A stretch of DNA of 32,000 nt from the NCBI RefSeq assembly GCF_000017845.1, contig NC_010546.1, forward strand, positions 2,040,001 to 2,072,000, in the 5' to 3' direction. A program made the position numbers and the translations under genes. The stretch is from Crocosphaera subtropica ATCC 51142 (GTDB taxonomy: Bacteria > Cyanobacteriota > Cyanobacteriia > Cyanobacteriales > Microcystaceae). Every line of letters starts with the position of its first letter. Within the stretch, counting starts at the first letter, position 1. Of the stretch, positions 6,241 to 16,129 are shown piece after piece. Below the pieces are notes generated by a model, which was given only the letters and a program-made list of their open reading frames with translations, was not told the DNA's origin and made no database searches.

Positions 6241-7497
6241 ATGGAAACTAATGAACCTATTACCAATGAATCTAAAACCATAAGTATAAGTGATTTGAAA
6301 TCTTTTACGATTCGTGGATTATTTGGTTATAAAGATATTGTTCTACCATTGGATAAAGAAGTTTTGATTTTAATTGCTGAAAATGGGGCAGGAAAAACGA
6401 ATATTCTCAATATTTTATATCAAGTTTTAAGTTTAGATATAAATATAACTAAGTCATTAAAATTTAATTCTATCTGTATTCAATTTAATAATTATAAAAA
6501 ATGTGAATTGGATTTTACTGAAATTGATCAGGAAGCATTGAAAAAATTAATTAAACCCAATGATTTGTTCGTTGTGATGGATATTATAGGTTCAGAAAAC
6601 AGGGAAAAAATAGAAAAAGAAGAAAAAATAATTAGTCAGTTTGAAATAAATTGGCAGGAAATTCAAAAGATAGATTTTAATACTTTATATTTTCCGACTT
6701 ATCGAAGAATAGAAGAAGATTTATCTAACCTTGGATATGAAAATCCTAAGCGTAACTATAATAATACAACCACATTAATTAAATTTGGAATGGAAGACGT
6801 TAAAAAGGAATTTAAGGAAATACAAACAGAAATTAAGAATACTGCATTTGAATTATTTTCAAGAGTTACAGGGGAAATGTTGACTCACTTTATTGAAGGA
6901 TTAAATGTAACGCAAGAAATGAGAGAAAGTATTAATATTGATATTTTGAATTTAATTTTAAGTCGTGTTGGAGAAAAAAATATTTCTAAAATAGAACAGG
7001 AAAAAATGAAAGAGTTAGTTATTTCGGGACAAATTAATGAACCTAAGTATGATGATTTAGTTTACTTCTTATCTAAACTAATTAATCTCTACCAAGATCA
7101 AAAAACAATAGACGAAACTATTAAATCTTTTGTCAATGTCTGCAATAAATACCTAAATCCCAGTAAAAAAATTATTTATGATGAGTCAATAGCAGAAATC
7201 TATATTAAACAAACTAGAAACAATGAAATCATAGAATTAAATCACTTATCTTCTGGAGAAAAACAAATCATTTCTTTATTCTCTAAAGTTTATCTAGAAG
7301 CAGAAGAAGACTTTATCTTAATTATTGATGAACCTGAATTATCTATATCCGTTGAATGGCAACAGATGCTACTTCCTGATATTATGAAATCAGGTAAATG
7401 TAAACGACTGATTGCAGCGACTCATTCTCCTTTTATTTTTGATAATGAATTAGATCATTGTGCTTACGCTTTAAGTCAATTTGTAACTGAACATTAA
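6241..7497 (+). CDS. ABC/SMC-type ATPase, AriA-like partner of a DUF4435 nuclease
   Basis: 418 aa with Walker A (LIAENGAGKTNIL), an ABC signature-like motif (LSSGEKQIISL), Walker B (FILIIDEPELS) and an H-loop (IAATHSPFIF). A long Lys/Glu-rich helical insert separates the two ATPase lobes. Very AT-rich. Confidence 0.8.
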   Translation: METNEPITNESKTISISDLKSFTIRGLFGYKDIVLPLDKEVLILIAENGAGKTNILNILYQVLSLDINITKSLKFNSICIQFNNYKKCELDFTEIDQEALKKLIKPNDLFVVMDIIGSENREKIEKEEKIISQFEINWQEIQKIDFNTLYFPTYRRIEEDLSNLGYENPKRNYNNTTTLIKFGMEDVKKEFKEIQTEIKNTAFELFSRVTGEMLTHFIEGLNVTQEMRESINIDILNLILSRVGEKNISKIEQEKMKELVISGQINEPKYDDLVYFLSKLINLYQDQKTIDETIKSFVNVCNKYLNPSKKIIYDESIAEIYIKQTRNNEIIELNHLSSGEKQIISLFSKVYLEAEEDFILIIDEPELSISVEWQQMLLPDIMKSGKCKRLIAATHSPFIFDNELDHCAYALSQFVTEH

Positions 7498-7503
7498 TTT
7501 TAA

Positions 7504-8460
7504 ATGGCAAATAATCCCGATCAATTAAGAGATTTTAGAGGTAAAGCGACGGTTGCTTTTACTTTATTTACAAGACAATACGAAAAAAATAAATTAGCTT
7601 TGTTTTGCTTCTTTGAGGGAAAAGATGATAGTAAATATTACAGTGTGAGAATTGATTTAATTGTCAAACCAATAGATGATAATTATTTTCCCTGTGGTAA
7701 AAAGTCAGAAGTTTTAAGAACTCATTCTTTAATTACTGAGCAAGAATATTATAATCATGCTAAAACAGCTTATTTTATTGATAAAGATTTTGATGAGTCT
7801 ATCTATAAAACTTTAGATGCTGATAATGCAAGTAAAATTTATGAAACCCCTTGTTATTCTATTGAAAATTTTTATACATCGAGTTATTGTTTTAAACGAA
7901 TTCTTAGAAGTGAATTTACTATTGATGAAATAGATGATAATTTTGATACCTGTTTAGACTTATATGAAAATAGACAAAATGAATTCCATGAAAAAGTTGG
8001 ATTATTGAATGCTTATATTGCTTGTTTAATGAAAAAAGATGAGCAAGAAAAACTTGATTTAAAAAGTAAACACAATAAATTAATGAAATGGTTTATTATA
8101 GAATTAGATAAAATAAAATCAAACTATAATCTTGAAACTTTAAATAATGAATTTTCGCCCAAAAATAATCCTTCACAGCAAGACATTAATAAAGAACTTA
8201 ATTACTTAAGATCCCAAGATTGTCAAAAAAGTTTTCGAGGAAAATTTGAAATAGAATTTTTACGTAAATTTTTAGAAAAACTAAAAGAAGAAGCTAATAA
8301 AAAAAAAGATCAACAAATCTATTTTTCCAAGAAACTAACTGTTTCATTATTGTTGAGTAACGATAATATTCTCTCTCAGTTATCTCAATATGCAGATACT
8401 CCTGATTGTTTGGTCAAATATCTAGAACAATTTAAAGAAAACGTCAATACAAATCAATAA
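7504..8460 (+). CDS. DUF4435/Toprim-like nuclease, AriB-like
   Basis: 318 aa, starting 6 nt after the ATPase stop. Acidic motifs occur in DUF4435/Toprim order: FFEGKDDSKYYS (E38), CGKK, FIDKDFD (D93/D95/D97) and YSIENFY (E121). Confidence 0.8.
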   Translation: MANNPDQLRDFRGKATVAFTLFTRQYEKNKLALFCFFEGKDDSKYYSVRIDLIVKPIDDNYFPCGKKSEVLRTHSLITEQEYYNHAKTAYFIDKDFDESIYKTLDADNASKIYETPCYSIENFYTSSYCFKRILRSEFTIDEIDDNFDTCLDLYENRQNEFHEKVGLLNAYIACLMKKDEQEKLDLKSKHNKLMKWFIIELDKIKSNYNLETLNNEFSPKNNPSQQDINKELNYLRSQDCQKSFRGKFEIEFLRKFLEKLKEEANKKKDQQIYFSKKLTVSLLLSNDNILSQLSQYADTPDCLVKYLEQFKENVNTNQ

Positions 8461-8706
8461 AAAACAATCAAAATCAACAATAAGAGAAATAGATTAAAAG
8501 AAGATAACAAAATAGAAAAAAATCTAGGTTACAGTACCCAAAATAAGGTAAATTAAAGGTGGAATGTTGCTCTATTTAAGGTAAAGAGTTTGATAAAAAA
8601 GTAGAGAGTTTGATTAATTTTTGTAAATGAGTTGAAACCCTTAATAAGCGTCACTTCCGACTTATAATCATAAAGATTACATAAACCTTTGTTGAGGTCT
8701 ATCGTT

Positions 8707-10686
8707 ATGGTTGCATCCTCCGAAAAAAATAACATTGAATCTGTCTTACAAGAAAAACGGGTTTTTAACCCTCCGGCTGACTTTGCTACCAACGCACATA
8801 TCAAAAGTCTTCAACAATATGAAGAACTATATGAGAAGGCCAAAAACGATCCCGAAACCTTTTGGGCAGAACTAGCAGAACAAGAATTATATTGGTTCGA
8901 GAAATGGGATCAAGTTCTAGACTGGAACCCCCCCACCGCCAAATGGTTTGTTAATGGCAAACTGAATATGTCCTATAACTGCCTCGATCGCCATCTTACC
9001 ACTTGGCGACGCAACAAAGCAGCTATTATCTGGGAAGGAGAACCCGGCGACTCTCGCACCCTCACCTACGGGGAACTACACCGAGAAGTGTGTCAGTTTG
9101 CCAATGTGTTGAAAGACATGGGAGTGCAAAAAGGCGATCGCGTGGGTATTTATATGCCGATGGTTCCCGAAGCTGCGATCGCTATGTTAGCCTGTACTCG
9201 GATCGGTGCGCCCCATAGTGTCGTATTTGGTGGGTTTAGTGCCGAAGCATTACGCGATCGCTTAGAAGATGCAGAGGCTAAAGTTGTCATTACTGCGGAT
9301 GGGGGGTTTCGCAAAGATAAGATCGTTCCCCTGAAAATAGAAGTGGATCAAGCCCTCGAAAATGGGGCTTCTAGCGTCGAAAAAGTGATCGTTGTACAAC
9401 GGACCAAACAAGATGTTACCATGCGCGAAGGACGTGATTATTGGTGGCACGATCTCCAAAAAGATGCCTCTCCTAAATGCGATGCAGAAGTAATGGATAG
9501 CGAAGATCCCCTATTCATTCTCTATACCAGTGGTAGTACAGGAAAACCTAAAGGGGTTGTCCATACCACCGGCGGTTATAACCTTTATACCCACATGACC
9601 ACAAAATGGATCTTTGATCTCAAAGACACCGATGTTTATTGGTGTACTGCCGATGTGGGTTGGATCACGGGACACAGTTACATTGTTTATGGTCCTCTTT
9701 CTAATGGTGCAACATCTTTGATGTATGAAGGGGTTCCTCGTCCCTCTAACCCTGGTTGTTTTTGGGATGTGGTAGAAAAATACGGGGTCAATGTCTTTTA
9801 TACTGCACCTACAGCTATCCGTGCATTTATGAAGATGGGAGAAGAATTACCCAACGCCAGGGATCTCTCATCCTTGCGTTTGTTGGGAACCGTCGGGGAA
9901 CCCATCAACCCCGAAGCTTGGATGTGGTATCACCGAGTTATTGGGGGTGAAAAATGTCCTATCGTTGATACTTGGTGGCAAACCGAAACCGGTGGGATCA
10001 TGATTACACCGTTACCTGGGGCCACACCCACCAAACCGGGATCAGCGACTCGTCCTTTCCCTGGTATTATTGCCGATGTGGTGGACAAAGACGGGAACCC
10101 CGTTCCCAACAATGCCGGAGGATATCTCGTTATTAAACATCCCTGGCCCAGTATGTTACGCACTGTTTATAATAACCCTGAACGCTTCCAAAAGACCTAT
10201 TGGGACCCCATTCCTGAAGTTGAAGGGAAACCGGTCTATTTCGCTGGTGATAGTGCGCGGAAGGATGAAAACGGCTATTTTTGGATTATGGGCCGCACCG
10301 ATGACGTGATGAATGTCTCCGGACACCGTTTGGGTTCAATGGAGTTAGAGTCTGCGTTAGTGTCTCATCCTGCAGTTGCTGAAGCGTCTGTGGTTGGGGT
10401 TCCCCATGAGATCAAAGGGGAAGATATTTATGCTTTTGTTACCTTGAAGGATAATTATAGCCCCAGTGACGAGTTAAATAAGGAGTTAAAACAGCACGTC
10501 GTAACTAAAATTAGTGCGATCGCTCGTCCGGGTACTATACAGTTTGCTGAAGCATTACCTAAAACGCGATCGGGTAAAATTGTACGGCGTTTCTTACGTC
10601 AAATAGCTGCCGGTCAAGATATTGTAGGAGATAAGTCTACGGTAGTTGATCCAAGTGTTTTGGATCAGTTGAGAGAGAAGGGTTAA
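8707..10686 (+). CDS. acs: Acetyl-CoA synthetase (acetate-CoA ligase)
   Basis: Motifs include [31 protein letters not shown], the AMP-binding motif [18 protein letters not shown] and [12 protein letters not shown] prefer ATG 8707 (MVASSEKNN...) to the TTG at 8689 used by the ORF track. Confidence 0.95.
9134..9141. repeat. HIP1 octamer GCGATCGC (representative copy)
   Basis: Exact GCGATCGC also read at 207, 438, 2771, 3782, 5634, 9175, 9254, 10516, 13489 and 26651 (start positions). None lies within 6065-8690 and only one within 10690-13850. Confidence 0.9.
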
Positions 10687-10697
10687 TTGTTAGTTTA

Positions 10698-10719
10698 GGG
10701 TGGGCTTTTTTAGCTCACC
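10698..10719 (+). terminator. Imperfect hairpin after acs (GGGTGGGC-loop-GCTCACC), a degenerate member of the GGTGGGCA/TGCCCACC palindrome family
   Basis: GGGTGGGC at 10698-10705, a TTTTTTA loop, then GCTCACC at 10713-10719, 12 nt after the acs stop. No clean downstream T-run. Confidence 0.35.
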
Positions 10720-10765
10720 TTATTCGTCTAAATCTTATTCCCATCAAGTTATAGTAATTTTTCTA

Positions 10766-10942
10766 ATGCCAACTCACGAACAACTAGAAGGACTTTATCG
10801 AATTTGTTATTATTTAACTTATCGAGCTTTACAACCCATACATCTCATTTGTACCGATGAAAGAACAGGTAATCTGTTTATTTTGGCAGGAGATAAGGAA
10901 AATATCGAAATTGAAATAACCCCTAATGGAGAGGTAATTTAA
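10766..10942 (+). CDS. DUF6888-like small protein
   Basis: 58 aa from ATG 10766 (MPTHEQLEGLYRICYYLTYRALQPIHLICTDERTGNLFILAGDKENIEIEITPNGEVI), resembling the cyanobacterial DUF6888 family. The track's 10700 start lies inside the acs hairpin. Its TAA stop overlaps the next ATG (TAATG at 10940-10944). Confidence 0.6.
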   Translation: MPTHEQLEGLYRICYYLTYRALQPIHLICTDERTGNLFILAGDKENIEIEITPNGEVI

Positions 10943-11157
10943 TGTCAGAGATTAATTATGATCAAATGTCAGACCAAGAACTTAGACAATATTTCTTAGA
11001 ACATAAAAATGATCAACCTGCTTTACAAGCATATTTGCAAAGACGAAATAAACAACGGAGACAAGTTATTACAAAAGTTGGTGATCCTGATTTTGATTTG
11101 AAGATAGAAAAGGCAATTAAATCAAAATTAGAAAGCCGTATCAATAGACAATTATAA
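10942..11157 (+). CDS. DUF6887-like small protein
   Basis: 71 aa. The N-terminus (INYDQMSDQELRQYFLEHKNDQPALQAYLQR) is typical of the cyanobacterial DUF6887 family that pairs with DUF6888. Confidence 0.65.
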   Translation: MSEINYDQMSDQELRQYFLEHKNDQPALQAYLQRRNKQRRQVITKVGDPDFDLKIEKAIKSKLESRINRQL

Positions 11158-11179
11158 AATCAGGGTAAAATAAATAATA

Positions 11180-12859
11180 ATGAAGCCTAAAGTTTGGATT
11201 GAAAAAATAAAATTTAGTGATGATTCAGAAGTTACTTTTGACTCTAATCAGATTGTCGTATTTGTTGGACCTAACAATGTAGGAAAAAGTGCATCATTGA
11301 AAGAGTTAAATATTTTAACGAGAAGTAATCATAAGAATGGAAAAGTTATTAAAGACTTCAGGTTACAAAAAGAAGGTAGCATAGACTATTTAGTAGAATA
11401 TCTTGAAAAATTTTCAATGAAAGAATTTTCAAATAATCCTGAACCTCACTATAAAGGTTATAGATTTAATGTATATAAAGGTAATTGTCGTAGTTGGTGG
11501 AGTATGAATAATCAACTTTTAGATTTACAACCTGTTTTTATTAACTTAATTAAAACTGAAGATAGATTAACTGCTGCAAACCCACCTAAGAATATATCAT
11601 TAACTAAAGATGCAATACAACATCCGATTCATTTTTTGCAAAAAGATGACACCATAGAAAAACAATTTAGTGACTATTTTAGACAAGCATTCGGTCAAGA
11701 TTTAATTGTTCATAGAAATGCAGGAGATCATGTTCCTTTATATATTGGTCAAAAACCCATACCTAAAGAGGGTGAAGATAGAGTATCAAGAAGTTATTTA
11801 GAAGAACTAGAAAAACTACCTTTATTACATGAACAAGGAGATGGAATGCGTAGCTTTGTTGGGGTTTTATTAAATGCTTTTATTTCTAATCATAATATTT
11901 TATTGATTGATGAACCTGAAGCATTTTTACATCCTCCTCAAGCGAGACTTTTAGGGAAAATGTTAGCCAAAGATTTACCCACTGACAGACAGTTATTTTT
12001 AGCAACTCATAGCAGTGATTTTTTAAGAGGATTATTAGAAGCACAAGTTTCTAGACTGAAAATTATTAGAATAGAAAGAGAAAAGCATATAAATAAAATT
12101 AGTGTGTTAGATAATTCAGAGATTATAGAAGTTTGGAATGATCCACTGCTAAGACATTCAAATATTTTAGATGGTTTATTTCATTCTAAAGTCATTATTT
12201 GTGAGAGTGATTCTGATTGTAGATTTTATTCCGCAATTCTACAAAGTATATATGAGAATGAATCTAACATTAGTCCCGATTTTCTCTTTGTTCATTGTGG
12301 AGGAAAACATAGAGTTAGTTCTGTAGTGAAAGCATTAAAACAATTAAATGTAAATGTTAATAGTATTTTAGATTTTGATGTTTTAAACAATCAAAACCCA
12401 TTAAAACAGATTTTTGAAGAGTTAGGAGGTGATTGGTCAATCATTGAAAAAGACTGGAAACTTGTGAAAACAAAAATAGATGAAAAAAGACCAGAACTAA
12501 CAACAGAAGATGTAAAAAAAGAGTTGAGTTTAATTCTTGAATCAACGACAGACAGAATTTTTCCTAAAAATAAAATAAAAGAAGTTGAAAATATCCTTAA
12601 AAAAGTTTCAGCATGGCAAGATGCTAAAAAAGTCGGTAAAAGTTTTATTCCTAATGGTGATCCAACTCAAGCTTATCAAAGATTAATTGTAGAATTAGAA
12701 CAAGTAGGATTAATGATTGTAGAAGTAGGAGAACTGGAAAGCTTTGTAAGATCAATTGGAAATCATGGGCCAAAATGGGTTAATGAAGTATTATATAAAG
12801 ACTTCGCTAATGATCCTGAATTACATGATGCAAGAGAATTTGTTAAAAAATTAATTTAG
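11180..12859 (+). CDS. Fused ABC-type ATPase + DUF4435/Toprim-like nuclease (OLD-family / merged-PARIS-like)
   Basis: 559 aa. The N-terminal half has Walker A (FVGPNNVGKSASL), a signature-like motif (QGDGMRSFVGVL), Walker B (ILLIDEPEAFLHPPQ) and an H-loop (LATHSSDF). The C-terminal half has ICESDSDCRFYS (E342), HCGGK, ILDFDV (D398/D400) and WSIIEKDW (E423), the same order as in the separate 318-aa ORF at 7504-8460. Confidence 0.8.
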   Translation: MKPKVWIEKIKFSDDSEVTFDSNQIVVFVGPNNVGKSASLKELNILTRSNHKNGKVIKDFRLQKEGSIDYLVEYLEKFSMKEFSNNPEPHYKGYRFNVYKGNCRSWWSMNNQLLDLQPVFINLIKTEDRLTAANPPKNISLTKDAIQHPIHFLQKDDTIEKQFSDYFRQAFGQDLIVHRNAGDHVPLYIGQKPIPKEGEDRVSRSYLEELEKLPLLHEQGDGMRSFVGVLLNAFISNHNILLIDEPEAFLHPPQARLLGKMLAKDLPTDRQLFLATHSSDFLRGLLEAQVSRLKIIRIEREKHINKISVLDNSEIIEVWNDPLLRHSNILDGLFHSKVIICESDSDCRFYSAILQSIYENESNISPDFLFVHCGGKHRVSSVVKALKQLNVNVNSILDFDVLNNQNPLKQIFEELGGDWSIIEKDWKLVKTKIDEKRPELTTEDVKKELSLILESTTDRIFPKNKIKEVENILKKVSAWQDAKKVGKSFIPNGDPTQAYQRLIVELEQVGLMIVEVGELESFVRSIGNHGPKWVNEVLYKDFANDPELHDAREFVKKLI

Positions 12860-12862
12860 TGT

Positions 12863-12877
12863 GATCTCGAAGAGATC
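12863..12877 (+). terminator. Short hairpin 4 nt after the ATPase-nuclease stop
   Basis: GATCTC-GAA-GAGATC (12863-12877), followed by CACTTT and a second T-run at 12893-12897. Weak. Confidence 0.3.
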
Positions 12878-12921
12878 CACTTTGCGGTGCGCCTTTTTAT
12901 AGGGTGTATTAATGAAATGTA

Positions 12922-13332
12922 ATGCACCAACTTGCTGTTATTATTTTAAACTATTTTAGTTCACCTGATAAAATTAATAAGGAGAAGACTATTATCGTTA
13001 ATCTACTGCCTTATGTTGATAATGCTAAGGTTGATATTCGTAAACTGCGTGATTATTGTCTTAATCCCGATCATGATGATGGTAAGCACAAAGCTCATTT
13101 ATTTTCGTCAATTTTAGGGATGACTGCTGATAATGCCGAAGAATTACGTCAAATTATTTTTAAGATGATCAAAACCCATGAAGCTAAATTAGGACGAAAG
13201 GATAAATATGGTCAACGTTACACGGTAGATTTTACACTTAAATGGCAAAACAAAAGTGCAATAATTAGAACAGGTTGGATTATCGAAAATCATTCTAAAA
13301 TTCCGAAATTAACTACTTGCTATCCCCTTTAA
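12922..13332 (+). CDS. DUF6883-like protein (putative toxin-like partner of DUF4926)
   Basis: The conserved core (VDIRKLRDYCLNPDHDDGKHKAHLFSSILGMTADNAEELRQII...YGQRYTVDF...WIIENHSKIPKLTTCYPL) matches the DUF6883 family as I remember it. The true start is uncertain: an AAGGAG at 12979-12984 precedes an in-frame ATT at 12991, while ATG 12922 has no Shine-Dalgarno sequence. Confidence 0.65.
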   Translation: MHQLAVIILNYFSSPDKINKEKTIIVNLLPYVDNAKVDIRKLRDYCLNPDHDDGKHKAHLFSSILGMTADNAEELRQIIFKMIKTHEAKLGRKDKYGQRYTVDFTLKWQNKSAIIRTGWIIENHSKIPKLTTCYPL

Positions 13333-13352
13333 TTTTTTGGAGGTCAAATAAA

Positions 13353-13607
13353 ATGAAAACTGATAAAGTAAAATTGCTTGATGTAGTTGCCTTAACGGTT
13401 GATATTCCTGAAGATAAACTATTTAAAGGTCAAGTCGGTACAGTTGTTGATATTTTAGCCGATGGAACAGCGTATGAAGTTGAATTTAGCGATCGCAATG
13501 GACGAACTTACGAATCTCTTGGACTCAGTGCTGACCAATTTATGATATTACACTTTGAGCCAATTAACCCTAATTCAACCTCAGAAATGATTACCACCAA
13601 AGTATAA
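13353..13607 (+). CDS. DUF4926-like small protein
   Basis: 84 aa from ATG 13353, preceded by GGAGG at 13339-13343. LLDVVALTVDIPEDKLFKGQVGTVVDILADGTAYEVEFSDRNGRTYESLGLSADQFMILH is typical of DUF4926. Contains the only HIP1 site of this insert. Confidence 0.8.
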   Translation: MKTDKVKLLDVVALTVDIPEDKLFKGQVGTVVDILADGTAYEVEFSDRNGRTYESLGLSADQFMILHFEPINPNSTSEMITTKV

Positions 13608-13629
13608 TGTTTTATAAAAGAGTTAAAAA

Positions 13630-13833
13630 ATGAAAATTAATATAGATAGAGATCCAGCCATTATTGAAGAAGCTTTACAAGTTTTAAGTCAACATTTAGA
13701 ACCTTCTAAACTAATGCGTTTTTTGGCTATTTGTAATTTAGGTAGTGTTGATTATTTCAACCTTAAAGAAAAACTTTTTGACGGGGAAACTGTAGATAGT
13801 CTCTATGAAAAAATAAAAGCTTTTGGGCTTTAA
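13630..13833 (+). CDS. Hypothetical 67-aa protein
   Basis: ORF 22 nt after the DUF4926-like gene on the same strand. I think I have seen the helical sequence (IDRDPAIIEEALQVLSQHLEPSKLMRF...LYEKIKAF) in other small cyanobacterial hypothetical proteins, but I cannot name a family. Confidence 0.5.
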   Translation: MKINIDRDPAIIEEALQVLSQHLEPSKLMRFLAICNLGSVDYFNLKEKLFDGETVDSLYEKIKAFGL

Positions 13834-14186
13834 CTTTTTCTGCACTGGGTTTTATGAGGGTTTTAAAACCTAGCTTTTCCCCCTTTCTCTAAGAGATTCA
13901 TGAGGGTTACTTCCTGCTTTGCCCATTTTGATAACCGTTCTCCATGGGAAAGGGTTATGCTTTCACTCCACCACCGAGAGGAAAGGACTTACACCTTCAC
14001 GGTTATTGAGTTGTCAAGGTACTTGACCTTGCCCTACCTAGGTCTGTTAAACTTTTGGTAAGAACAAATCGGCTCAACTTCTCAGAGGCTTCCTTAACTT
14101 TTGTAGCTAATGCTGTTATAGATAGCAAGAGTCGCGCTTTAATAAGATTGAACAATATCAAATTTTCAACAATATATATAAATAGT

Positions 14187-15547: not shown

Positions 15548-16129
15548 ATGGTAATTGATGTACAGAAAAAAACAAAATTCTATACTCCTGAAGAATATTT
15601 AAAGTTAGAAGCTGATGCTCAACAACGACATCATTATATTAAAGGAGAAATCATTGAAATGGCTGGCGGTACTCCTAATCATAATAAGATAGCATTAAAC
15701 TTAAGTAGTGCTTTAAACTTTGCCTTTAAAGGTAAACCATTAGATATTTTTATGACAGATCAAAGGTTATGGATTCCTTCAGAAAAAATCTACACTTATC
15801 CTGATATAATGGTAGTTGAGCAACCTTTAAACTATGCTCAAAATCGCAATGATACTTTAATTAATCCTTTGCTCATTGTTGAAGTGTTATCTACGTCAAC
15901 AAGGAATTATGATAAAGACGAAAAATTTGCAGCTTATCGGACTATTTCTAGTTTTCAAGAATATATTTTAATTGATCAAAATTGTATCCATATTGAACAA
16001 TATATCCGACAAGACTCGAATAAATGGACGTTTATTGAATACAATAATTCTACGGATACTTTAATCCTATCTTCGGTTAATTTTGAAATCGAACTTGTTG
16101 ATATTTACGATAAAGTCAATTTAAGCTAA
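15548..16129 (+). CDS. Uma2-family endonuclease (DUF820)
   Basis: 193 aa with YTPEEYLKLEADAQQRHHYIKGEIIEMAGGTPNHNKIALNL, YPDIMVV, LIVEVLSTST and KFAAYRTI, the restriction-endonuclease-like fold typical of cyanobacterial Uma2. Confidence 0.85.
   Translation: MVIDVQKKTKFYTPEEYLKLEADAQQRHHYIKGEIIEMAGGTPNHNKIALNLSSALNFAFKGKPLDIFMTDQRLWIPSEKIYTYPDIMVVEQPLNYAQNRNDTLINPLLIVEVLSTSTRNYDKDEKFAAYRTISSFQEYILIDQNCIHIEQYIRQDSNKWTFIEYNNSTDTLILSSVNFEIELVDIYDKVNLS

Follow-up and report, generated by a model that had tools for sequence, protein, structure and literature searches.

The DUF6888/DUF6887 gene pair and the OLD-family nuclease gene downstream of acs in Crocosphaera subtropica are probably independent neighboring modules

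Three genes, cce_2017, cce_2018, and cce_2019, are arranged head to tail downstream of acs in the 32,000-nt stretch of the Crocosphaera subtropica ATCC 51142 genome that was analyzed as a whole (hereafter, the window). A comparison of about 170 related loci indicates that they very probably represent two independent, exchangeable modules, a DUF6888/DUF6887 pair and an OLD nuclease gene, which stand side by side in a variable, recombination-prone defense islet after acs. The sequence-only reading of this DNA had considered either a three-gene ATPase–Toprim system or a toxin–antitoxin (TA)-like duo that had landed next to a nuclease. The first proposal is contradicted by the distribution of the two modules and by their reciprocal loss in close relatives. 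The second stands in part: adjacency of separate modules fits all the comparative evidence, but the two probably arrived in the opposite order. The features of the locus are as follows.

8689–10686, + strand: acs (acetyl-CoA synthetase; Pfam ACAS_N/AMP-binding/AMP-binding_C), the conserved anchor gene
10696–10722, + strand: terminator-like hairpin after acs, without a T-run (fold −17.3 kcal/mol, z = −3.8)
10766–10942, + strand: cce_2017, DUF6888 protein, 58 aa (PF21828, E = 2.2e-24)
10942–11157, + strand: cce_2018, DUF6887 protein, 71 aa (PF21826, E = 1.8e-19)
11129–11139, no strand: junction of the pair block and the OLD block (blastn breakpoints; OLD leader of L001 against the window)
11140–11179, + strand: conserved, unstructured leader (about 40 nt) of the OLD cassette; GGGTAAAA precedes the ATG
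11180–12859, + strand: cce_2019, OLD-family ABC-ATPase and Toprim nuclease, 559 aa (Pfam, PADLOC, invariant motif residues)
12863–12877, + strand: 6-bp/3-nt hairpin directly 3′ of the OLD block (GATCTCGAAGAGATC; fold)
12897–12957, + strand: left half of a double-hairpin repeat of about 92 nt, found repeatedly where cassettes join in Crocosphaera-type loci
12922–13607, + strand: second small-gene pair, DUF6883 and DUF4926 (Pfam 1.6e-28 and 2.3e-27)

The ORF coordinates, the one-base overlap of cce_2017 and cce_2018 (TAATG at 10940–10944), the 22-nt gap between the cce_2018 stop (11157) and the cce_2019 start (11180), and the shared strand are all present as the sequence-only reading gave them, and the AT-rich composition that it ascribed to the three genes is borne out by a GC content of about 30–34% for the pair and 27–32% for the OLD gene, vs. 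45–50% for acs. For cce_2017, annotated as a 58-aa form in RefSeq and an 80-aa form in GenBank, homologues favor the ATG at 10766 over a GTG at 10700. In the second small-gene pair, the DUF6883 ORF occupies 12922–13332 and the DUF4926 ORF 13317–13607. The hairpins proposed to flank the three genes (10696–10722 and 12863–12877) both fold, the GATCTCGAAGAGATC hairpin within a multi-hairpin stretch (z = −3.1), and neither passes a canonical intrinsic-terminator scan. In a promoter and terminator scan of 10400–14100, promoter-like sites are no commoner than expected from shuffled sequence and operon boundaries are not callable; an Rfam search of the window returned zero family matches. The gap between DUF6887 and OLD is without structure on folding (z = +1.05), and its hairpin-free, same-strand 22 nt would make co-transcription of the pair and OLD possible in C. 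subtropica.

The cce_2019 protein is best read as a stand-alone Class 1-type OLD nuclease. Pfam detects AAA_21 (6.5e-16) and AAA_15 (1.8e-14) along with a Toprim domain at the C terminus (PF20469 OLD-like_TOPRIM, E = 3.9e-6, 27.7 bits, cutoff 23.2), and the PADLOC “Old” model matches at 2.5e-24. ATPase residues G30/K36/S37, D244/E245, and H277 are invariant in 33 homologues, and so are Toprim residues E342 and D398/D400. As in the Class 1 enzymes P2 Old, TsOLD (PDB 6P74), Vc OLD, and E. coli YbjD, an ABC ATPase at the N terminus and, at the C terminus, a Toprim domain are joined in a single chain, about 560 aa long, bearing Walker A, Walker B, H-loop, Toprim Glu, and DxD, encoded by a single gene without a conserved partner. 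The sequence is only distantly related to these enzymes: the best solved relative, Class 1 TsOLD, is reached by profile (E = 1.2e-7, residues 240–402), and single-sequence phmmer against the PDB gave no match.

Class 1 OLDs are single genes by definition, and Vc OLD protects against phage on its own (PMC10568477, PMC12392090); Class 2 is defined by an adjacent UvrD/PcrA/Rep helicase, and Class 3 by a retron reverse transcriptase and ncRNA (PMC10568477). The neighbors of cce_2019 are DUF6887 upstream and DUF6883 downstream, and Pfam and Rfam searches of the window reveal no UvrD-like helicase, reverse transcriptase, ncRNA, or split ATPase/Toprim beside it. Class 1 OLD genes are usually not close to other defense genes (PMC10568477), whereas cce_2019 lies between TA cassettes, with a PARIS-like AriA/AriB pair about 2.7 kb away. 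If it works as P2 Old, TsOLD, and Vc OLD do, the protein would have an anti-phage role, as a dimeric ABC-ATPase/Toprim enzyme that requires no partner to nick or degrade the DNA of invading phages.

Across 80 metagenomic loci that encode OLD homologues with 34–73% identity to cce_2019, neither DUF6888 nor DUF6887 was found (0/80). The genes that flank these homologues (69 upstream and 57 downstream in a census) are heterogeneous, with no recurrent helicase or reverse transcriptase among them. The clade spans phyla and has over 4,700 detectable homologues, and those with 60–70% identity belong to Bacteroidota, Latescibacterota, Methyloglobulus, and an archaeon. Gabija (GajA and GajB), retron-Eco8 (a Class 3 OLD), and PARIS (AriA and AriB) resemble cce_2019 in ATPase and Toprim domain chemistry, and the PADLOC models GajA, AriA, and AriAB match it weakly; in those systems accessory genes consistently accompany the nuclease, whereas DUF6888/DUF6887 do not accompany OLD.

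Both small proteins pass the Pfam gathering threshold, DUF6888 with 85.5 bits against a cutoff of 27 (profile positions 1–54 of 55) and DUF6887 with 70.2 bits against a cutoff of 24.2 (positions 2–61 of 62). The cce_2017 protein is acidic (pI 4.7) and consists of one helix followed by three strands (AF2 pLDDT 96.6), and the cce_2018 protein is basic (pI 9.4) with three helices (AF2 pLDDT 83.9). Foldseek of the two AF2 models against the PDB gave no match at E ≤ 0.001, the best matches being generic beta-alpha-beta fragments above that value; a HicA-like fold that had been suspected for DUF6888 was not found in this search. Pfam, NCBIfam, and PADLOC assign neither protein to a toxin or antitoxin family, and a PADLOC match of cce_2018 to a type II REase (E = 3.3e-4 over 44 residues) was judged spurious. 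A literature search found no paper on DUF6888, DUF6887, or the cce_2017–2019 locus tags.

The distribution of the pair was surveyed at 80 DUF6888 loci from GTDB genomes (L005–L084) with flanks of ±8 kb. DUF6887 is directly downstream of DUF6888 in 77 of the 80, and every named record is cyanobacterial, 3/80 being labeled only “uncultured bacterium”; the earlier description of the pair as cyanobacterial and uncharacterized thus holds. A homologue of the cce_2019 OLD was found within ±8 kb of DUF6888 at none of the 80 loci (0/80), and from these reciprocal surveys the pair does not co-occur with OLD beyond chance. Pfam and PADLOC censuses show heterogeneous flanking genes: of the +1 genes at 76 pair loci, 33 are encoded on the opposite strand and 22 share the strand of the pair but lie more than 120 nt from it; the remaining 21 are co-directional and no more than 120 nt away, and they fall into 17 unrelated groups. 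The pair is also carried by cyanobacterial plasmids of 14 and 18 kb, whose annotated stretch includes no gene annotated as an ATPase-nuclease.

In organization the pair resembles type II TA systems such as HicAB, with two small co-directional genes, overlapping stop and start codons, an acidic and a basic product, multi-copy and tandem arrays, patchy spread, plasmid carriage, and other TA cassettes as neighbors. It differs in having no sequence or fold likeness to known families and no recognizable DNA-binding domain. Because neither protein has toxin or antitoxin homology or a fold match, the label “TA-like” denotes organization only. With plasmid carriage and single-chain fusions as signs of its autonomy, the pair is best read as an autonomous, translationally coupled, cyanobacteria-only module that would behave like a toxin–antitoxin or addiction pair, the acidic 58-aa and basic 71-aa proteins probably binding one another.

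The same absence of homology and fold likeness is consistent with a pair that is not a TA system at all: a mobile-cassette accessory, a small nucleic-acid-binding heterodimer acting on neighboring nucleases, or an anti-defense or immunity factor, for which the OLD adjacency would be one case of a loose affinity for nuclease genes. Because Uma2 endonuclease is enriched among +1 genes (5/76 vs. 17/1399 genes overall) and is the sole recurrent neighbor there, the pair may have some affinity for nuclease neighborhoods; the Uma2 cases collapse to about three independent events, including an opposite-strand one, and Uma2 was rejected as a general third partner. A search with the DUF6888 profile against 1.84 billion representatives yielded single-chain DUF6888–DUF6887 fusions (P0179, P0233) and one further fusion, in which a Shedu (SduA) nuclease domain is joined to DUF6888–DUF6887 (metagenomic ORF P0192), and nothing else. 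P0192 likewise favors a nuclease link, but it is a single 2.9-kb contig, too thin a base for one. The start of cassette homology at the ATG, without a conserved promoter of its own, also suits a non-TA role; against it, a convergent gene faces the pair at the 33 opposite-strand loci, most pairs are without a nearby co-directional partner, and plasmid carriage and multi-copy arrays suit an addiction module. A non-TA role for the pair is thus unlikely.

Relatives anchored by acs (76–96% identical across L001, L002, L005, L006, and L011) show how the two modules vary at this site. In L006 and in Geminocystis L002, acs is followed by the pair without OLD. In L005, acs is followed by the pair (97%/90%), an unrelated 203-aa ORF, and DUF6883–DUF4926, again without OLD. 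In C. chwakensis (L001), acs is followed by SocA_Panacea and a 132-aa ORF and then OLD (88%), with no DUF6888/DUF6887 pair before it. In L166, about 150 nt without a detectable DUF separate acs from an intact OLD of 561 aa; a gapped alignment of this interval suggests a surviving C-terminal end of a divergent DUF6887′ and a TAATGTCA junction, so that a remnant of the pair, missed by HMMs, may be present. In L165, acs is followed by DUF6888′–DUF6887′, DUF6887, the identical 22-nt gap, and only codons 1–61 of OLD; because this DNA is about 90% identical to the C. subtropica locus, the shared junction represents one event rather than independent recurrence. L005, without OLD, has DUF6883–DUF4926, and L001, with OLD, lacks it, a pattern that marks this second pair as the next islet cassette, outside the OLD unit. 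HicAB fills the neighboring cassettes in L001 and L165.

The DNA blocks delimited by blastn have breakpoints at 10722, 10765, 11128–11140, and 12865. The conserved acs block stops at 10721–10722 against L001, L005, L011, L165, and L166. Pair homology begins exactly at the cce_2017 ATG and ends at 11128–11135 against L005, L011, and L002, and OLD homology begins at 11140 against L001 and ends at 12863–12865 against L001 and L166. The final few codons of cce_2018 consequently fall in DNA common to the OLD block, and upstream ORFs end inside the OLD leader at positions that differ genome by genome. Known cassette hotspots, such as the P2 old locus hotspot and TA-rich integron arrays, are similar in that a fixed anchor (here acs) precedes a patchwork of small, exchangeable cassettes, with sharp homology breakpoints at gene boundaries and, in the acs islet, a short repeat at junctions. 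The islet differs from these hotspots in that no integrase or attC-type sites were identified, and its repeat, a 92-nt double hairpin, is found only in Crocosphaera-type loci.

The pair is directly after acs in Crocosphaera, Geminocystis, and a cyanobacterial MAG, and OLD is in only some Crocosphaera-type loci; given the wider spread of the pair, OLD was most likely the one to arrive beside an existing pair. The OLD cassette would have recombined in directly 3′ of the pair, the two being joined within the variable tail at the DUF6887 C terminus, so that the 22-nt gap would be a by-product and any co-transcription of the pair and OLD incidental read-through. In both complete Crocosphaera genome contexts, a TA-like pair is located about 22–31 nt upstream of OLD, which might point to a general advantage of having a pair upstream.

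This spacing in two genomes also bears on a local co-option, in which the modules are independent but the pair provides OLD with a promoter or translational context, or pair autoregulation gates OLD, such that any upstream TA pair would act as a stress-responsive switch. The conserved OLD leader of about 40 nt is too short for certainty of a full promoter, and a promoter scan ahead of OLD gives nothing over background. On the other side, L166 has an intact OLD separated from acs by merely about 150 nt of degraded sequence, and unrelated genes are upstream of most OLD homologues; local co-option is therefore considered very unlikely. A true three-gene system, in which DUF6888/DUF6887 would control the ATPase–Toprim nuclease or be required by it, whether for specificity, for regulation, or in the manner of an antitoxin, could draw on the tight spacing on one strand with a hairpin-free gap, the junction shared with L165, the TA-like pair that likewise precedes the C. 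chwakensis OLD, and the one Shedu fusion, but it is highly improbable given the empty counts in both surveys, intact OLD without the pair in L001 and L166, the pair with OLD degraded (L165) or absent (L005, L006, L002), close OLD homologues in phyla from which the survey recovered no DUF6888, and the DNA block boundary between the pair and OLD.

With the pair and OLD read as separate modules, their adjacency is a false lead: it reveals no new OLD-type defense architecture, and annotation of the pair as an OLD accessory should be avoided. Class 1 OLDs have received little study so far, and a widespread stand-alone OLD clade has a cyanobacterial member in cce_2019. Tightly coupled, plasmid-borne, and multi-copy, with confident but unmatched predicted folds, DUF6888/DUF6887 can reasonably be put forward as a candidate new TA family. 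A bolder and unlikely extension is that the pair is a new cyanobacteria-restricted addiction module, with folds that have no solved relative, which seeds or stabilizes a cassette-exchange hotspot downstream of acs, where defense genes (OLD, the 203-aa ORF) and TA pairs are swapped at gene-boundary joints and the 92-nt repeat; if so, the hotspot would amount to an array of cassettes resembling an integron but lacking an integrase. The Crocosphaera acs islet offers a clean natural case of cassette turnover, usable for studying the exchange of defense and TA genes in cyanobacteria.

Three genes follow the acetyl-CoA synthetase gene acs (8689-10686) on the forward strand:

10766-10942 (+), cce_2017, 58 aa, DUF6888 (Pfam, 2.2e-24)
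10942-11157 (+), cce_2018, 71 aa, DUF6887 (Pfam, 1.8e-19)
11180-12859 (+), cce_2019, 559 aa, AAA_21/AAA_15 plus OLD-like_TOPRIM (Pfam)

These assignments agree with the sequence-only reading, as do the one base common to cce_2017 and cce_2018 (within TAATG), the 22-nt gap before cce_2019, and the AT-rich composition (27-34% GC in the islet vs 45-50% in acs). The hairpins noticed on both flanks fold more strongly than shuffled sequence, but neither qualifies as a canonical terminator in a terminator scan. The cce_2019 product is identical (100%) to ACB51369.1, and its top PADLOC model is 'Old' (2.5e-24).

The proposal that the three genes constitute one ATPase-Toprim system is not supported. 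An HMM of 120 OLD homologues, scanned over +-8 kb, detected no OLD homologue near the pair in 80 DUF6888 loci from species-representative genomes (0/80); its sole match was weak, ABC-like and 4-5 kb upstream of the pair (L065). Reciprocally, neither DUF6888 nor DUF6887 occurs in any of 80 metagenomic OLD loci (0/80; 34-73% identity), and each co-occurrence frequency is thus below about 4% (rule of three, 80 loci either way). Of 76 loci, 33 have a gene of opposite orientation next after the pair and 22 a co-directional one at a distance of over 120 nt; in the other 21 this gene falls into 17 unrelated groups, among which Uma2 alone recurs. Only one ABC-type ATPase, MADS mad3-like, is an immediate downstream neighbour.

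Relatives anchored on acs separate the two modules. The gene order after acs is as follows:

Window: pair, OLD, DUF6883-DUF4926, 67-aa ORF
L001 (C. chwakensis): SocA_Panacea plus 132-aa ORF, OLD (88%), 72-aa ORF (equivalent to the 67-aa ORF), HicA-HicB
L166: about 150 nt in which no DUF is detectable, then an intact 561-aa OLD
L165: divergent pair, DUF6887 (same NRINRQL tail as in the window), the same 22-nt gap, OLD codons 1-61 only, repeat, HicA-HicB-DUF2283
L005 (Crocosphaera MAG): divergent pair, pair (97%/90%), unrelated 203-aa ORF in the OLD slot, DUF6883-DUF4926 (93%)
L011, L006 and L002 (Geminocystis): pair(s), without OLD

OLD therefore stays intact where there is no pair, and the pair survives where OLD is absent or decayed. 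This reciprocal absence, together with the independent distribution in both surveys, supports the other reading offered earlier, a selfish duo that adjoins a nuclease. Because the acs-pair arrangement is common to the window and Geminocystis, and OLD is limited to some Crocosphaera-type loci among these relatives, OLD most likely arrived after the pair.

Sharp blastn breakpoints delimit the modules. The acs block stops at 10722, the hairpin end; the pair block extends from 10765 to 11128-11135, and the OLD block common to the window and C. chwakensis from 11140 to 12865, which places the joint within the last codons of DUF6887. The cce_2018 stop codon lies inside a roughly 40-nt conserved OLD leader, and in C. 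chwakensis the unrelated 132-aa ORF ends in the same leader at a different position. Different upstream ORFs ending in one leader suggest that pair and OLD are two cassettes put side by side by recombination, and their adjacency is the outcome expected of such juxtaposition.

In cce_2019, Walker A, Walker B, the H-loop, the Toprim Glu (E342) and DxD (D398/D400) are present and invariant in 33 homologues (60-89% identity). The search detected over 4,700 homologues, including proteins of 60-70% identity in Bacteroidota (Flammeovirga, Salinimicrobium), Latescibacterota, Methyloglobulus and a Woesearchaeote; the best solved relative of the homologue profile is the Thermus scotoductus Class 1 OLD (6P74, E=1.2e-7). 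Class 1 OLD is a single gene, whereas a UvrD-like helicase accompanies Class 2 and Class 3 is located in retrons (PMC10568477); the bacterial Class 1 Vc OLD is a DNA nickase that works alone in phage defence (PMC12392090). In the 80 metagenomic loci, neighbours on both sides of OLD are heterogeneous (UvrA, integrases, R-M subunits, metabolic genes), with no recurrent helicase or reverse transcriptase. Like the stand-alone class, cce_2019 has no recurrent partner gene among its homologues, and it therefore fits a Class 1-type OLD.

The named records among the 80 DUF6888 loci are all cyanobacterial (Crocosphaera to Nostoc, Microcoleus and Prochloron). DUF6887 lies directly 3' of DUF6888 in 77/80, several loci carry tandem or multiple pairs, and the pair is also plasmid-borne (e.g., 14 kb in Gloeocapsa, 18 kb in Calothrix). 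Searched against 1.84 billion representative proteins, the DUF6888 profile matched only 229 clusters, nearly all of 40-110 aa. Some of them (P0179, P0233) are single-chain DUF6888-DUF6887 fusions, which argues that the two products act jointly. DUF6888 is acidic (pI 4.7) and DUF6887 basic (pI 9.4); the AF2 models are a confident helix plus three strands (pLDDT 96.6) and three helices (pLDDT 83.9), respectively, neither with a significant PDB fold match. No paper naming either family was found, and 'TA-like' is inferred from organisation and distribution. Between Crocosphaera and Geminocystis (window 10766-11157 vs L002 6001-6395), homology of the pair begins exactly at the DUF6888 ATG, and DUF6888 is better conserved than the adjacent housekeeping acs (protein, 88% vs 76%; DNA, pair 81% vs acs 73%), which implies that the pair is under strong constraint or else was recently transferred to that location.

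A strictly local dependence of OLD on the pair for its regulation is possible in this strain, though unlikely. Folding predicts no structure in the 22-nt gap, nothing was found in the sequence to block read-through from pair to OLD, and the pair cassette, homologous from its ATG, has no conserved promoter; cce_2017-cce_2019 may be co-transcribed here.

Two hints point to a loose affinity of the pair for nuclease genes, and ATPase-Toprim proteins are absent from both. Uma2, a putative endonuclease family (PADLOC PDC-S03), is the sole recurring immediate downstream neighbour (5/76 loci, L020, L042, L048, L049 and L050, about three independent events, vs 17/1399 flank genes overall). P0192 (L169 1525-2634) is a single 369-aa ORF in which a Shedu SduA nuclease domain (PADLOC 1.6e-52) is followed in frame by DUF6888 and a tail resembling DUF6887; the sole such case in the 229 clusters, on one 2.9-kb metagenomic contig, it may be a genuine fusion or may have arisen as an assembly/frameshift artefact. 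The window has a Uma2 gene at 15548-16129, 4.4 kb downstream of the pair.

Further genes of note lie around acs and in the relatives:

6241-8460 (+), 418-aa and 318-aa proteins, just upstream of acs
12922-13607 (+), overlapping DUF6883 (136 aa) and DUF4926 (96 aa), a further TA-like cassette
13630-13833 (+), 67-aa ORF, no family match
L001 5018-5969 (+), SocA_Panacea (186 aa) and overlapping 132-aa ORF, preceding the OLD orthologue
L005 8413-9024 (+), 203-aa ORF, exactly in the OLD slot between the DUF6888/DUF6887 pair and DUF6883/DUF4926

The 418-aa protein has matches to AAA_15/AAA_21 and AriA (PADLOC 4.6e-31), the 318-aa protein to DUF4435 and AriB (PADLOC 3.3e-59). The two thus form a PARIS-like pair, which gives the window another ATPase/Toprim defence system. 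L005 has both genes (71% and 81% aa identity), and the C. chwakensis locus L001 lacks them. Defence genes therefore lie on either side of acs. The listed DUF6883 ATG (12922) falls inside a repeat hairpin and the L005 orthologue has 118 aa; the true start is probably further downstream. The 67-aa ORF, 92-94% identical in L001 and L011, directly follows OLD in the former and has a DUF6887 on one side and a DUF6888 on the other in the latter, and appears to be a small, independently moving cassette. The L001 genes look like a PanTA-type pair (no family match for the 132-aa ORF), and the L005 203-aa ORF, without a Pfam or PADLOC match, is a candidate defence or cargo gene.

A repeat of roughly 92 nt occurs only in Crocosphaera-type loci, at cassette junctions:

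Window: 12897-12957, left half only
L011: 6139-6440 (three tandem copies), 7059-7119
L165: 1168-1259, 1984-2043
L001: about 7963-8101, 8636
L005: 9056-9150, 9816

It has 13-bp terminal inverted repeats (GTAGGGTGCATTA...TAATCCACCCTAC) and two 9-bp-stem hairpins (GGTGCATTA/TAATGCACC and GGTGGATTA/TAATCCACC); HIP1 (GCGATCGC) frequently precedes it. In L165 it lies where the OLD deletion ends on the right, and copies flank HicA-HicB-DUF2283 on both sides. Possible identities of the repeat are a MITE-like element and a recombination site.

Both modules belong to kinds already known: OLD is Class 1-type, and the cyanobacterial pair, though uncharacterised, is catalogued in Pfam. What remains of value is the pair, a candidate for a new TA family, and the islet beside acs, which exemplifies cassette turnover.
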